From an uncultured Solirubrobacterales bacterium (GTDB lineage Bacteria > Actinomycetota > Thermoleophilia > Solirubrobacterales > Solirubrobacteraceae): 64,000 nt of DNA. The position numbers were made by a program, and so were the translations under genes. Shown one piece after another: positions 21,986 through 25,673 of this stretch (position 1 is its first letter; each line of letters begins with the position of its first letter). The DNA lies in NCBI GenBank assembly GCA_963772075.1, contig CAVYWG010000014.1, forward strand, positions 14,950 through 78,949, given 5' to 3'. The notes beneath the pieces are model-generated. The model worked only from the letters and a program-made list of their open reading frames with translations, did not search any database and was not told the origin of the DNA.

Positions 21986-22648
21986 ATGCGGGTACTTGTG
22001 ATCGAGGACGACGAGGAGCTGGCCGCAACGGTCGCCGCCGGCCTGCGCCACGCGCGGATGGCGGTCGACGTGGCGCTCGACGGCGGGGCCGGGTTGACGC
22101 GCGCGCTGGTCAACGACTACGACGTGATCGTGCTCGACCGCGACCTTCCCGGCATCCACGGCGATGAGGTGTGCGCCAAGCTGGTCGCAGCCGGCGGGCG
22201 CAGCCGGGTGCTAATGCTGACCGGCGCGGCGGAGAATGAGGACCTCGTCGACGGGTTGGGGCTCGGCGCGGACGACTACCTGGCTAAGCCGTTCGACTTT
22301 CCCGTGCTGGTCGCGCGCATCGGCGCACTTGCTCGCCGGGCGCAGCCGAGCATCCCGCCGGTGCTGGAGCACGGCGATGTCGTGCTCGATACGGCCAAGC
22401 GCCGCGCGCGGCGCGCGGGCCGTGAGCTGGAACTGACGCCCAAGGAGTTCGGGGCGCTGGAGCTGCTGCTCGCCGCCCAGGGCCGGGTCATCGCGGCCGA
22501 GGAGCTGCTCGAACGCGTATGGGATGAGAACGCCGACCCGTTCACAGGCGCGGTGCGGATCACCATGAGCCGGCTGCGCGCGAAGCTCGGCGAGCCCCCC
22601 GTGATCGAGACCGTCGCGAAGGCCGGATACCGCATCGGAGGTGGGTGA
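21986..22648 (+). CDS. OmpR-family response regulator (paralogue of 19298-19951)
   Basis: Same motifs with shared identical DNA stretches (GGTCAACGACTACGACGTGATCGTGCTCGACCGCGA); GAGGAG RBS before ATG 21986. Confidence 0.95.
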   Translation: MRVLVIEDDEELAATVAAGLRHARMAVDVALDGGAGLTRALVNDYDVIVLDRDLPGIHGDEVCAKLVAAGGRSRVLMLTGAAENEDLVDGLGLGADDYLAKPFDFPVLVARIGALARRAQPSIPPVLEHGDVVLDTAKRRARRAGRELELTPKEFGALELLLAAQGRVIAAEELLERVWDENADPFTGAVRITMSRLRAKLGEPPVIETVAKAGYRIGGG

Positions 22649-22706
22649 TGGGCTTCGTGCACCGCCGGCTCCTACCACCGAACGGTCTTCACGTTTGGGG
22701 TCAAAC

Positions 22707-24197
22707 GTGAAGACCTCACCAAGTTGGCTGCGACTGCCTCGCCGCACCGCCCGGCTGCGGCTGACCGCTCTCTACGGCGGCCTCTTCCTCCTCTCCGGCG
22801 TCGCGCTGGTCGCCATCACCTATGGCCTTTTCGAGCGGGCGACCGAATACAAAACGCCGCACTTGCCGAAGGTTCCTCACACCTCTGCCATCCAGCATCT
22901 CCGCTTTCCCTACCTGCCTGCACCGAGCCAATTTTCGGCTCAGTCTGGAAAGGCTGCGCCGGTGGGTCAATCCGTCGTCATCAAGCATCCGCGTCAGTTG
23001 ACACAGGCTCAGCGGGAGCTGGGACAGGCTCAGTACGAGCTGACACAGGCTCGACCTCGGCTGGTGGTGGGTGTGCCGAATCTGCTGGGACGGGTACAGC
23101 ATCAGATAACACAGGCTCAGCATCAGCTGGCGCAGGACCAGCGTCAGCTGACAGACGCGGTGCACCAGCTGGCACAAGTGGGGCCCGTGCAAGCCGCGCA
23201 GCGCGCTACCGACTCCCACCAGCTGCTGGTCAACTCGGGGATCGCGCTGGCGATCGTGGCCGTGCTCGCTCTCCTCGCCGGCTGGGTGGTCGCCGGCAGG
23301 ATGCTGCGCCCGATCCGCACCATCACCCGCACGGCGCGGCGGATCTCCTCCACCAGCCTGCACGAGCGGTTGGCCCTCGACGGCCCGCAGGACGAGCTCA
23401 AGGAGCTCGGAGACACCCTCGATGACCTGTTCGGGCGCCTCGACGCCGCGTTCGAAGCGCAACGCCAATTCGTCGCCAACGCCTCGCACGAGCTGCGCGC
23501 GCCGCTGACCCGCCAGCGAGCGCTGATCCAGGTCGCGCTAGCCGACCCCGAGGCGGACTTCAGCTCGCTGCGCGCAGCCCATGAGCGCGTGCTCGCCTCA
23601 GAGCAGCACCTCGAGCAGATGATCGATGGTCTGCTGGCGCTCACGCGCGGTCAGGCAGGGTTGGAGCGCCGCGAGCACCTGGATCTCGCCGACATCGCCG
23701 CCAAGGTCATACACGCGCGCGAGCCAGAGGCCGCAGGCGGCAACCTCGACGTTCGCGTAACGCTCGCGCCGGCGCCGGCGGAGGGCGATCCACGGCTGGT
23801 CGAGCGCCTGATCGCCAACCTCCTCGACAACGCCATCCGCCACAACGTCCCCCGGGGACACGTCGAGATCACGACTGGCACCCATCACCAGCGGGCATTC
23901 CTGGCGGTCGCCAACAGCGGTCCCACGATTCCCACCGAGGAGCTGCCGCGCCTGTTGCAACCGTTCCAACGCCTACACGGAACCCGTACCAACCACACGA
24001 GCGGCAACGGGCTCGGCCTGGCGATCGTCGACGCGATCGCCGCCGCCCATCGCGCCACGCTCACAGCCCAACCGCGCCCAGGCGGCGGGCTGGCCGTCGA
24101 AGTCACCTTCCCATCCATATCTATCGATGCGAACAGCAATGCGATCGCACACGGGCCGGCGGTGAAGGCCTCCAGGGGCGCTCGGACAAGCGCGTAA
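22707..24197 (+). CDS. Sensor histidine kinase with Gln-rich heptad-repeat extracytoplasmic region
   Basis: TM1, QLTQAQ-type heptads, TM2, HAMP, FVANASHELRAPL, NLLDNA, GNGLGLAIV. Start could be 22641 or 22707. Confidence 0.9.
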   Translation: MKTSPSWLRLPRRTARLRLTALYGGLFLLSGVALVAITYGLFERATEYKTPHLPKVPHTSAIQHLRFPYLPAPSQFSAQSGKAAPVGQSVVIKHPRQLTQAQRELGQAQYELTQARPRLVVGVPNLLGRVQHQITQAQHQLAQDQRQLTDAVHQLAQVGPVQAAQRATDSHQLLVNSGIALAIVAVLALLAGWVVAGRMLRPIRTITRTARRISSTSLHERLALDGPQDELKELGDTLDDLFGRLDAAFEAQRQFVANASHELRAPLTRQRALIQVALADPEADFSSLRAAHERVLASEQHLEQMIDGLLALTRGQAGLERREHLDLADIAAKVIHAREPEAAGGNLDVRVTLAPAPAEGDPRLVERLIANLLDNAIRHNVPRGHVEITTGTHHQRAFLAVANSGPTIPTEELPRLLQPFQRLHGTRTNHTSGNGLGLAIVDAIAAAHRATLTAQPRPGGGLAVEVTFPSISIDANSNAIAHGPAVKASRGARTSA

Positions 24198-24210
24198 AGT
24201 TGCGTTTGTG

Positions 24211-24355
24211 GGCCCCCCGGCACATGTGCCGGGGGGCCGGACCGTACATGTACGGTCCGGACGCAGGGCCGCATGCGGCCCTGCGCGGCGCGCGCATGCG
24301 CGCGCCGTACGACGACGCACATGTGCGTCGTCGCGCTCGGCACATGTGCCGAGCG
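24211..24355. repeat. Array of six abutting perfect palindromes, each centred on CATG
   Basis: 24211-24238 (28 bp), 24237-24260 (24), 24262-24285 (24), 24286-24307 (22), 24310-24333 (24), 24334-24355 (22). Checked base by base. Confidence 0.95.
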
Positions 24356-24476
24356 GCAAAGAACTGCTAGGGTTGCCACATCAGGTTGGGCGCTCGCCCA
24401 ACATCGCAGTGCCAGCGCTCGTAGCCTTGCTTAAAGCATCTCCGCGTTCGCAGCACTAACAACGCAGGAGGAAGCA

Positions 24477-24680
24477 ATGGCTAGTGGAACCGTCAAGTGG
24501 TTTAGCGACGACAAGGGATTCGGGTTCATCACGCCCGACGACCAGTCCAAGGACCTGTTCGTCCATCACACCGCGATCGTCGGTGAGGGCTATCGCTCGC
24601 TCGCCGAGGGCGCGAAGGTCACATACGAGGCGGAGGCTGGCGAGAAAGGCCCCAAGGCCGTCAACGTCCAAGCCTCCTAG
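24477..24680 (+). CDS. cspA: Cold-shock protein
   Basis: [32 protein letters not shown]1/RNP2 motifs; AGGAGG RBS at 24466. Confidence 0.97.
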
Positions 24681-24687
24681 GCCCTTT

Positions 24688-24719
24688 CGCGTCTGTCCGC
24701 CGCGAGGTGGACAGACGCG
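24688..24719 (+). terminator. Stem-loop after cspA
   Basis: CGCGTCTGTCC / GGACAGACGCG 11-bp stem; weak U-tract. Confidence 0.6.
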
Positions 24720-24737
24720 GGCCTGTTTGGAGATGCC

Positions 24738-25673
24738 GTGTCGCAGCACCCTGCCGGCGACGACACCGTTGTCATCGAGCACGAGGCAGTCGATCGCCTC
24801 GCCAATATCGTCGTAACGGTCGTCCCGGTGGCCCTCCTGGGCCTCGCGATTTGGTTGGCGTGGGGCGGCGCTCTGCATTGGCAGGACCTCGTCGTGCTCG
24901 CGATCACCTACATCGTCACCGGCGTGGGGATAACCGTCGGCTTTCACCGCCTGTTCACGCACCGCAGCTTCAAGACCAGTCGCCTGCTGCGCGCGCTGTT
25001 TGCCGTGTCCGGCTCCGCGGCGGTCGAGGGGCCGGTGATCGAGTGGGTATCGACCCATCGCAAGCACCACCGCTTCAGCGACGTCGCCGGCGATCCTCAC
25101 AGTCCCCATACCGATCACGGTGCCGGTTGGCGAGGGGCGCTCAGGGGTCTCTACCACGCCCACGTCGGCTGGATGTTCCGCGGCGTCGATCGCGCGAGCG
25201 CCGAGCGCTACGCCAAGGACCTACTCGCCGACCCCGTGATCCGCGCGGTCGATCGCACCTTCCCGCTGTGGGTGGTGCTCGGGCTCGCGTTCCCGTTCGG
25301 GCTTGGAGTCGCGCTGACCGGGTCGCTGGTCGGCGGCTTGACCGGCATGCTGTGGGGCGGAGCCGTTCGGATCCTGTTCTTGCACCACGCGACCTTCTCG
25401 ATCAACTCTCTGTGTCACTTCTTCGGGCGCCGGCGCTTCTCCACCGGCGATGAGTCGCGCAACCTCGCCTGGCTCGCCCTCCCGACCTTTGGCGAGGCCT
25501 GGCACAACAACCACCACGCCTTCCCCACCTCCGCTCACCACGGTCTCACTCGTTGGCAGCTGGATCCCGGCGGCTGGCTGATCGACGGCCTCGAGCGGGT
25601 CGGGCTCGCGTGGGATGTCGTGCGCATCTCCGCGGGCGCCCAGCGGGCAAAGGTTGCCTGCGGGCCACGCTGA
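24738..25673 (+). CDS. Acyl-CoA (delta-9-like) fatty acid desaturase
   Basis: Three His boxes (GFHRLFTH, HRKHH, WHNNHH); TM segments. Confidence 0.93.
   Translation: MSQHPAGDDTVVIEHEAVDRLANIVVTVVPVALLGLAIWLAWGGALHWQDLVVLAITYIVTGVGITVGFHRLFTHRSFKTSRLLRALFAVSGSAAVEGPVIEWVSTHRKHHRFSDVAGDPHSPHTDHGAGWRGALRGLYHAHVGWMFRGVDRASAERYAKDLLADPVIRAVDRTFPLWVVLGLAFPFGLGVALTGSLVGGLTGMLWGGAVRILFLHHATFSINSLCHFFGRRRFSTGDESRNLAWLALPTFGEAWHNNHHAFPTSAHHGLTRWQLDPGGWLIDGLERVGLAWDVVRISAGAQRAKVACGPR

Follow-up and report, generated by a model that had tools for sequence, protein, structure and literature searches.

A recurrent intergenic array of abutting CATG-centered palindromes in the Solirubrobacterales

The palindromic array in the window

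The DNA analyzed here is a stretch of 64,000 nucleotides, hereafter the window, from an uncultured Solirubrobacterales bacterium (assembly GCA_963772075.1, contig CAVYWG010000014.1, positions 14,950 to 78,949, forward strand). Two response-regulator/histidine-kinase gene pairs are followed by an array of palindromes and then by a two-gene cassette of cspA and a fatty-acid desaturase gene. The array, which is assigned to no strand, occupies positions 24211 to 24355, where a palindrome scan of the window found six abutting perfect palindromes, all centered on CATG. It is one copy of a lineage-specific, low-copy interspersed repeat family of the Solirubrobacterales (Actinomycetota, Thermoleophilia). 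The family is apparently undescribed: a full-text literature search found no description of such arrays, in agreement with the first-pass annotation of the window, which knew of no element with this architecture. It apparently belongs among the interspersed extragenic palindromic repeats, for which its perfect symmetry, conserved center, and fixed 24-bp pitch are unusual.

The six units measure 28, 24, 24, 22, 24, and 22 bp, and their centers are spaced 24, 25, 23, 25, and 23 bp apart. The central hexamer is ACATGT in units 1, 2, 5, and 6 and GCATGC in units 3 and 4; the scan agrees with the first-pass annotation in all of these values. Unit 1 (24211 to 24238; GGCCCCCCGGCACATGTGCCGGGGGGCC), with a family-typical part of 24 bp, overlaps unit 2 by 2 bp and is kept as CCCCCCGGCACATGTGCCGGGGGG at six of the other loci compared, which are designated by L numbers (L002, L019, L060, L115, L117, and L128). 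Unit 2 (24237 to 24260; CCGGACCGTACATGTACGGTCCGG) has variants (CCGGGCCG.., CCGACCCG.., and CTGTGCCG..) whose differences are all fully compensated. Unit 3 (24262 to 24285; CGCAGGGCCGCATGCGGCCCTGCG), also called K, has the core CAGGGCCGCATGCGGCCCTG; it is the most widespread unit and is unchanged across eight window-type arrays. Unit 4 (24286 to 24307; CGGCGCGCGCATGCGCGCGCCG) includes 18 bp of strictly alternating purines and pyrimidines and reads CGGGGCGCGCATGCGCGCCCCG in relatives, a compensated C/G transversion. A compensated transition distinguishes unit 5 (24310 to 24333; CGACGACGCACATGTGCGTCGTCG) from its counterpart CGACGGCGCACATGTGCGCCGTCG, and unit 6 (24334 to 24355; CGCTCGGCACATGTGCCGAGCG) is CGGTCGGCACATGTGCCGACCG or CCGGTCGGCGCATGCGCCGACCGG in relatives.

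Elsewhere in the window (68% G+C), no perfect palindrome is longer than 16 bp. The six palindromes of at least 22 bp compare with a mean of 0.08 and a maximum of 1 in 200 first-order Markov simulations of the window, and a generic three-core pattern that matches the window once has no match in 100 shuffles. The array escapes Tandem Repeats Finder, its units being too dissimilar. With unlike units and no spacers, the array is indeed neither a tandem duplication nor a CRISPR locus, as first proposed. The region folds as RNA into six hairpins (z = -7.96), and the single units fold as DNA with energies of -11.1 to -17.3 kcal/mol, the latter being the value for unit 1. The suggestion that complementary flanks (AGTT..TTTG and CAAA..AACT) might close the whole array into one structure was not borne out, as they form a 4-bp helix in the fold and are absent from homologous arrays.

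Short-read contigs often break at the array; in the most similar runs, they end at 24121 to 24229 and restart at 24341 to 24356. One contig, L255, ends inside its own array (L255:4489-4544). Frequent termination of this kind could be read as the mark of an assembly or amplification fold-back artifact, an explanation to which we attach virtually no probability. A contig identical over 24273 to 24462 comes from an independent soil run of 2017, and related arrays occur in the hundreds, in many samples and in independent assemblies with differing naming schemes (MFD 'contig_' records and k141/k127 records). Their units are ordered and evolving, with compensated differences, and orthologous arrays keep their palindromic symmetry. 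The region occurs in soil metagenome runs. The array in the window is thus genuine DNA and not an assembly artifact.

Distribution and anatomy of the family

A reference scan of one genome per species was made with a 20-mer of unit 3 (CAGGGCCGCATGCGGCCCTG). It is present in at least 119 stretches of metagenome-assembled genomes; 117 of those listed are labeled Solirubrobacterales or Solirubrobacteraceae, and two listed stretches on the same contig are labeled Actinomycetota only. Among the matches listed, each genome holds 1 to 4 unit-3 arrays, scattered along complete chromosomes. The unit-3 loci contain 522 CATG-centered perfect palindromes of at least 16 bp, compared with at most 23 for any other center, in arrays of 2 to 7 units. 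A search of metagenome contigs for the core only, without unit 3, returned approximately 28 further true arrays of 3 to 8 units, in soil and peat contigs of 65 to 74% G+C. Only 4 of these approximately 28 arrays hold an exact copy of unit 3, which is therefore common but dispensable; the idea that it is obligatory was rejected. In total, the family occupies at least 78 unrelated (non-homologous) genomic contexts.

No second array was found in approximately 1 Mb of flanking DNA, and the window has one. All arrays are internal to contigs and chromosomes, unlike the palindromes of Streptomyces-type telomeres, which sit at the ends of linear replicons. Viral contigs gave 0 unit-3 matches, and plasmid and phage collections gave no BLAST match to the array. 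Six matches of the generic pattern in viral contigs are due to chance and include no palindromes, and a phage or plasmid origin was rejected. The generic core pattern also matches microsatellites of the forms (TGCATGC)n, (CATGYR)n, and (CATGTR)n in metagenome contigs of lower G+C (including L191, L200, L202, L208, L212, L233, and L236); these microsatellites are unrelated to the 24-bp arrays.

Across the family, arrays hold 2 to 8 abutting units of 24 ± 1 bp each. The spacing between centers has its mode at 24 bp (228 cases), with 90 cases at 23 bp, 74 at 25 bp, and 13 at 26 bp. The perfect arm measures 12 bp in 74% of units, in terminal and internal units alike, so that unit length is intrinsic rather than determined by the neighboring unit; the notion that palindromes grow outward from the core until they meet a neighbor was rejected on the same grounds. 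The unit consensus is CCGGnCGGC-R-CATG-Y-GCCGnCCGG. A purine invariably occupies position -3 and a pyrimidine position -4, position -5 is G in approximately 90% of units, and positions -7 to -12 are highly variable, which leaves a conserved 10-bp core, GYRCATGYRC, of strictly alternating purines and pyrimidines. The center is CATG in 597 of the 612 units with perfect outer arms (97.5%) and something different in 15. The family comparison thus agrees with the initial observation that symmetry, length, and core are conserved while the arms differ from unit to unit.

The arrays are oriented. Units begin with CCGG or CGGG, the flank motif GYTGTT occurs once per array, where it often precedes one end, and a C-rich YYCCC follows the other end, often as TTCCCCGAA after unit 3. 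A GTT lies 0 to 2 nt from one end in 33 of the 78 unrelated contexts, compared with 2.3% per end expected by chance. The terminal units are relatively conserved (the CCGGTCGGCGCATGCGCCGACCGG type at one end and the K unit near the other), and variation is greatest in the middle of the array. Miniature inverted-repeat transposable elements (MITEs) have terminal inverted repeats and a target-site duplication; the two array ends are unlike each other (GYTGTT versus YYCCC), and no target-site duplication was seen, without a clean empty site for comparison.

Two features were observed at a few array ends or unit centers. Directly after the last unit at three loci (L019, L037, and L060) lies a mini-open reading frame encoding Met-Asn-Trp-stop (GGGAAGAC ATG AAY TGG stop), followed by a lower-GC noncoding stretch. 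Among the three loci, the Asn codon varies synonymously (AAT/AAC) and the stop codon is TAA, TGA, or TAG, a different one in each; the mini-frame is possibly a leader peptide or RNA element. At six loci (L257, L025, L077, L108, L111, and L116), a GATC-rich hairpin, ACCGATC..(loop)..GATCGGCCA, lies directly 5′ of a GCATGC unit center and takes the place of the left arm (for example, L257:5082-5120). It has the appearance of a second repeat family that inserts into the arrays, or recombines with them, at the tip of the hairpin.

The arrays are intergenic, located between 43 tandem, 28 convergent, and 9 divergent gene pairs. An additional 27 arrays were classed as inside a stop-to-stop open reading frame (ORF); these cases are interpreted as downstream genes extended too far in the 5′ direction. 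Many arrays begin 1 to 20 bp past a stop codon. Their neighbors are metabolic and housekeeping genes, such as those for enolase, CTP synthase, aldehyde dehydrogenase, methylmalonyl-CoA mutase, and ABC transporters. On the arrays themselves, gene calling produces spurious ORFs, for example a 63-aa gene at L003:3649-3840.

Evolution of the arrays and history of the window locus

Of the 539 units examined, 514 (95%) have no mismatch in the 10 bp of each arm nearest the center. The 29 mismatches comprise 10 G:T, 6 A:C, and 13 others, with no excess of G:T. At orthologous positions in 52 array pairs with both flanks homologous, 298 compensated two-arm differences were counted versus 9 one-sided differences, together with 58 whole-unit gains or losses. 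The array pairs are phylogenetically non-independent, so the counts overstate the number of events, and it is the ratio that matters. Several pairs have differences at 17 to 25% of positions in the variable arms, compared with approximately 6% in the mostly coding flanks. The same pattern was obtained with RNAalifold for the eight window-type arrays, where 20 of 56 pairs have compensatory changes and 1 has a one-sided change. Among close unit pairs, the 58 compensated changes divide into 42 transitions and 16 transversions, with only transitions at positions -3 and -4; the 42:16 ratio was discarded as a test because it does not separate RNA-level from DNA-level constraint. Orthologous sites keep their arrays down to approximately 75 to 80% flank identity. 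Thus, the arrays are vertically inherited at orthologous positions, and units are gained and lost over time. One route of gain is visible in a metagenome array (L190:2015-2147), where three near-identical units 42 bp apart represent a recent tandem duplication that included a unit.

The near absence of G:T pairs, the equivalence of the two strands, and the many transversion-type double changes argue for arm-from-arm copying in DNA, since RNA-level selection alone would tolerate G:U pairs. We therefore infer that the symmetry is best explained at the DNA level by template switching, a process established to homogenize the arms of inverted repeats (PMC7202029, PMC8604942). The arrays resemble the products of quasipalindrome template-switch mutagenesis (the Ripley model; PMC7202029, PMC8604942) in their two-arm changes and their almost complete lack of one-arm mismatches. 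That mutagenesis is a process rather than an element, however, and it leaves the CATG core, the fixed unit length, and the persistence of the arrays unexplained. A fold-back or template-switch origin had been suggested in the first-pass annotation; the 298:9 ratio fits such a process as the means by which symmetry is maintained, but the special enzyme that was invoked is not needed.

Insertions and deletions of 0.1 to 2 kb and changes in gene order often begin at an array edge or between units (L019/L037, L060/L087, L003/L007, and L255/L257), an observation that has no control set of ordinary intergenic regions. Each unit is its own inverted repeat, and shared units could therefore mediate inversions and deletions.

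Recurrent ends and rearranged surroundings could also be the traces of a non-autonomous mobile or selfish element, moved as single-stranded DNA by a hairpin-recognizing enzyme encoded elsewhere and now mostly fixed and vertically inherited. The enzyme would be an HUH/Y1 transposase of the IS200/IS605-RAYT kind (RAYT, repetitive extragenic palindrome-associated tyrosine transposase) or similar, the terminal hairpins would be distinct from the others, and GYTGTT would be a cleavage or target motif. The same oriented ends in unrelated contexts (GTT in 33/78), the relative conservation of the terminal units, the near-identical window-type arrays in rearranged surroundings, and the confinement of the family to one lineage are consistent with this explanation, which we nevertheless consider distinctly unlikely. 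No recurrent transposase, nuclease, or RAYT-like neighbor was found among 513 flanking ORFs or among 108 Pfam-scanned representatives of the neighbor families (25 commonest Pfam families listed). Copy number is low, with no second array in the flanks, the arrays are retained at orthologous sites over the range of flank identities given above, and viral, plasmid, and phage collections contain none. No clean pair of filled and empty sites was found, nor a target-site duplication; the comparison of L002 with L003 reveals non-homologous filler and no precise insertion.

The locus in the window has itself been rearranged. The second of the two upstream kinase genes (22641 to 24197, + strand) encodes a sensor histidine kinase with HAMP, HisKA, and HATPase_c domains, and 13 bp separate its stop codon from unit 1. 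Homologs of the kinase carry the source label Solirubrobacteraceae. Within the kinase gene, 21-bp tandem repeats (22999 to 23153) encode a Gln-rich, heptad-like stretch (..LTQAQRELGQAQYELTQA..HQITQAQHQLAQDQRQL..) placed between the first membrane segment and the HAMP domain. On the other side of the array, homology to other cspA loci begins at approximately 24361, which is 5 bp past unit 6 and approximately 115 bp before the cspA start codon. The cspA upstream region and 5′ leader (24361 to 24476, + strand) thus lie outside the array. They are followed by cspA (24477 to 24680, + strand; 67 aa, cold-shock domain), by the fatty-acid desaturase gene (24738 to 25673, + strand), and, on the opposite strand, by an ABC-2 transporter gene.

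Both sides of the locus have counterparts in other combinations. Among kinase orthologs (75 to 87% identity), the kinase gene is followed by a glyoxalase gene and then the array in L257 and by a remnant of the glyoxalase end and then the array in L255, and no array lies within 3 kb in L256 and L258. A contig with an 85%-identical kinase has the same array 19 bp past the stop codon and ends inside the array. In L003, the order is glyoxalase, array, 130 bp, and cspA, and in L007 and L008 two opposite-strand genes lie between the array and cspA. The cspA-desaturase cassette (24361 to 25673 in the window) recurs in differing surroundings (L003, L005-L009, and L115), and its position relative to a glyoxalase/AraC gene pair changed between L003 and L007/L008. 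The array is an old resident of the glyoxalase/cspA neighborhood, which was repeatedly rearranged with breakpoints at or within the array. In the window, the glyoxalase gene and the 130-bp spacer were lost, which left the array with the stop codon of the kinase gene on one side and the upstream region of cspA on the other. Relative to its relatives, unit 6 has a mirrored G/C change exactly at the new junction; as a single case, this change would fit symmetrization after the deletion.

The position of the array led to the proposal that it serves cspA, as a cold or supercoiling sensor of the cspA/desaturase genes acting through a cruciform or a methylation switch at the cspA promoter, as a thermosensor, or as a substrate of the cold-shock protein. 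It is true that, in the window, 5 bp separate the array from the stretch that is homologous to the upstream regions of other cspA genes, and window-type arrays are often within approximately 1.5 kb of the cspA-desaturase cassette. An exact look-up of the CspA protein found ten places, however, of which four have homologous arrays and five encode the identical protein without an array. The four homologous arrays have the same unit order with different arm letters. Across the loci compared, including the window, the distance at which an array lies upstream of cspA (5 bp, 130 bp, or 1.3 kb with intervening genes) and the orientation vary; one copy is inverted upstream of the neighboring glyoxalase gene, and one lies downstream of the desaturase gene. 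The search of related genomes recommended in the first-pass annotation did reveal further arrays with compensatory arm changes, but not a general linkage to cspA. Because the same architecture occurs in at least 78 unrelated contexts, the link to cspA is incidental.

Transcript data weaken the link further. Soil metatranscriptome contigs cover cspA from 24404 to 24732, beginning downstream of the array, and the window array was not found in any RNA run. The last of these contigs stops just past an imperfect hairpin (24688 to 24719), which is probably the cspA 3′ end or terminator. A scan of 23900 to 24800 for promoter and terminator consensus sequences gave no match. In an Rfam search of the window region and 16 array loci, the only hits were one transfer RNA and a sub-threshold match to the cspA thermoregulator (RF01766; 24349 to 24720, 28.5 bits versus a gathering score of 78), which overlaps the array by 7 nt.

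A methylation or restriction switch at CATG receives no support from its frequency, as the observed/expected ratio outside the arrays is 1.00 for CATG, 0.96 for GCATGC, and 0.67 for ACATGT. RCATGY is an NspI-type site, and a link to restriction-modification was rejected since CATG is not clearly depleted. GC-rich arms of 12 bp are also poor cruciform formers. A role specific to cspA is therefore, in our view, hardly credible.

Candidate functions of the arrays

We favor, with somewhat less than even confidence, an interpretation of the arrays as vertically inherited hairpin-cluster elements, similar to repetitive extragenic palindromic (REP) sequences and bacterial interspersed mosaic elements (BIMEs), that would act on either strand as a barrier or insulator at transcript 3′ ends. 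When a strand is single, each unit would fold into a 10-bp hairpin with a CAUG or CATG cap, and since every unit is a perfect palindrome, transcripts of both strands would form the same row of very stable hairpins. Such a row could work like a REP/BIME cluster or a hairpin-cluster terminator, stopping or pausing read-through, and could block 3′-to-5′ exonucleases. Neighboring transcription units would be insulated from each other, as the kinase operon would be from cspA in the window. When one arm mutates, intrastrand template switching within the hairpin (quasipalindrome correction) would either undo the change or transfer it to the opposite arm, so that the arms could drift fast and remain perfectly paired. 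The unpaired CATG center and its closing pairs would be kept constant through direct selection.

In position and architecture, the closest models are REP/BIME clusters and hairpin-cluster terminators (PMC8266576, PMC8355165). REPs are known for roles in mRNA stabilization. In Proteobacteria, REPs and BIMEs are tied to transcript 3′-end stability, termination, and gyrase binding, and they resemble the arrays as lineage-specific, short, GC-rich palindromic units that form stable mRNA hairpins, are often clustered head to tail in variable number, and are extragenic, mostly at 3′ ends. The arrays likewise are extragenic and mostly downstream of genes, a position in agreement with REP behavior (PMC8266576). 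The differences are considerable, however. REPs are imperfect palindromes with a 5′ GTAG-type tetranucleotide in each unit, whereas the arrays consist of perfect palindromes with a conserved center and free arms; REPs alternate in orientation within BIMEs, whereas the arrays carry a flank motif at the array end only. REPs number tens to hundreds per genome, compared with few arrays per genome, and they are tied to a RAYT/TnpAREP gene, none of which was seen near the arrays among the scanned flanking ORFs.

Clustered hairpins that lie within 80 nt of a stop codon have been put forward as intrinsic terminators (PMC8355165). By sequence, the arrays would qualify as such clusters, with at least two hairpins less than 15 nt apart and no more than approximately 80 nt from the stop codon (PMC8355165). 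Like these clusters and the "I-shaped" hairpins of actinobacteria, which lack a U-tract, the arrays have no U-tract, and they do not have the form of a canonical intrinsic terminator, a GC-rich hairpin followed by a U-tract. Ordinary terminator hairpins, in turn, have no sequence family, conserved loop, 24-bp pitch, perfect DNA symmetry, or conserved flanks, all of which distinguish the arrays.

Several results weigh against a barrier at transcript ends. The orientation of the elements has no preference relative to incoming transcription (20 versus 28). No run of T/U follows the hairpins in the consensus scan, and the flank profiles are not T-rich. A 920-nt metatranscriptome contig reads through a 4-unit array, although DNA carry-over is possible. 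Intrinsic termination by mycobacterial RNA polymerase in vitro depends on a U-tract, which makes a pure terminator role doubtful and leaves 3′-end protection or insulation as the safer claim. Furthermore, a plain hairpin function leaves unexplained the CATG center (97.5%), the purine/pyrimidine alternation at -3 and -4, and the oriented ends. Since CATG is unpaired in the hairpin, arm-to-arm copying cannot keep it, and its conservation implies direct selection or specific recognition. The conserved core and ends suggest a protein partner.

The arrays may be chromosomal sites of a protein that recognizes, at a pitch of 24 bp, the CATG tip of the hairpin or the core GYRCATGYRC, a possibility that we judge rather unlikely; conceivable candidates are a nuclease or recombinase specific for hairpins and a factor for nucleoid organization or topology. 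In a related explanation, which we rate as unlikely, a dimeric DNA-binding protein or a hairpin- or cruciform-binding protein would read the core every 24 bp and form a nucleoprotein complex at a few sites per chromosome (a topological barrier or gyrase site, a nucleoid-organizing site, or a recombination site), with the palindromic arms arising as a side effect of template switching around the palindromic core. Conservation of the core goes far beyond the needs of pairing (CATG in 597/612, with the purine at -3 and the pyrimidine at -4 invariant), the pitch is a strict 24 ± 1 bp, and the arrays are low in copy number, scattered along chromosomes, and oriented independently of transcription. 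Perfect Watson-Crick symmetry without a G:T excess points to DNA, and synteny breaks and indels often abut the array edges. However, a protein would leave the perfect complementarity of 9 to 10 variable bp per arm unexplained, and the terminal units are no longer than the internal ones, which argues against simple outward growth from the core. No candidate protein and no linked gene beside the arrays were found, and orientation does not correlate with local GC skew (26/48).

The constant loops, on stems that vary in sequence and hairpin number, recall the CsrB/RsmZ sponge RNAs, in which identical short loop motifs titrate an RNA-binding protein, and one metatranscriptome contig does contain an array. 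A noncoding RNA with several CAUG-tipped hairpins, as proposed in the first-pass annotation, is nevertheless very unlikely. Sponge RNAs have GGA loops on imperfect stems with G:U pairs, are made from one strand, and have a defined promoter and terminator, whereas the arrays have CAUG loops and strand-symmetric DNA palindromes with almost no G:U pairs and with strict equivalence of the two strands. Neither a conserved promoter nor a conserved terminator brackets the arrays, no transcription signals were found, their orientation is random relative to neighboring genes, and there is no Rfam match above threshold. The RNA contig that contains an array continues into both flanks rather than ending at the array, and the cspA-containing RNA contigs lack the array of the window.

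Two other systems with short palindromic units were considered. Integron attC sites share with the arrays the folded single-strand recognition that the hairpins would allow, a variable sequence with conserved symmetry, and a GTT at one boundary. They are, however, imperfect palindromes of 57 to 141 bp with R and L boxes, extrahelical bases, gene cassettes between them, and an integrase, none of which the arrays have; array units contain no bulges and no ORFs between them, and only the GTT at the array end resembles the R′ box. CRISPR arrays are similar in their regular pitch and short, partly palindromic units, but the palindromic arrays have no spacers (0 to 2 nt between units) and unlike units, and no cas gene was present among the neighbor genes examined.

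If the interpretation holds, the Solirubrobacterales, an abundant and barely studied soil order, would carry a repeat family with three unusual properties: approximately 95% perfection among several hundred units, arms that change almost only two-sidedly, and a 4-nt center that is near-invariant. The arrays would provide a natural data set for asking whether selection on hairpins or template-switch correction keeps short palindromes perfect in vivo, by what means high-GC Actinomycetota, which have no U-tract terminators, terminate or insulate their transcription units, and whether bacteria use chromosomal sites coded by structure rather than by sequence. In practical terms, the arrays break short-read assemblies and attract spurious ORF calls. 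If they are instead sites of a protein that reads the hairpin tip or core, they would represent a new class of structure-coded genomic site, in which information resides only in the center and the symmetry. The DNA would then restore its own symmetry by arm-to-arm copying, and the Solirubrobacterales would offer a natural system for measuring the self-correction of palindromes.

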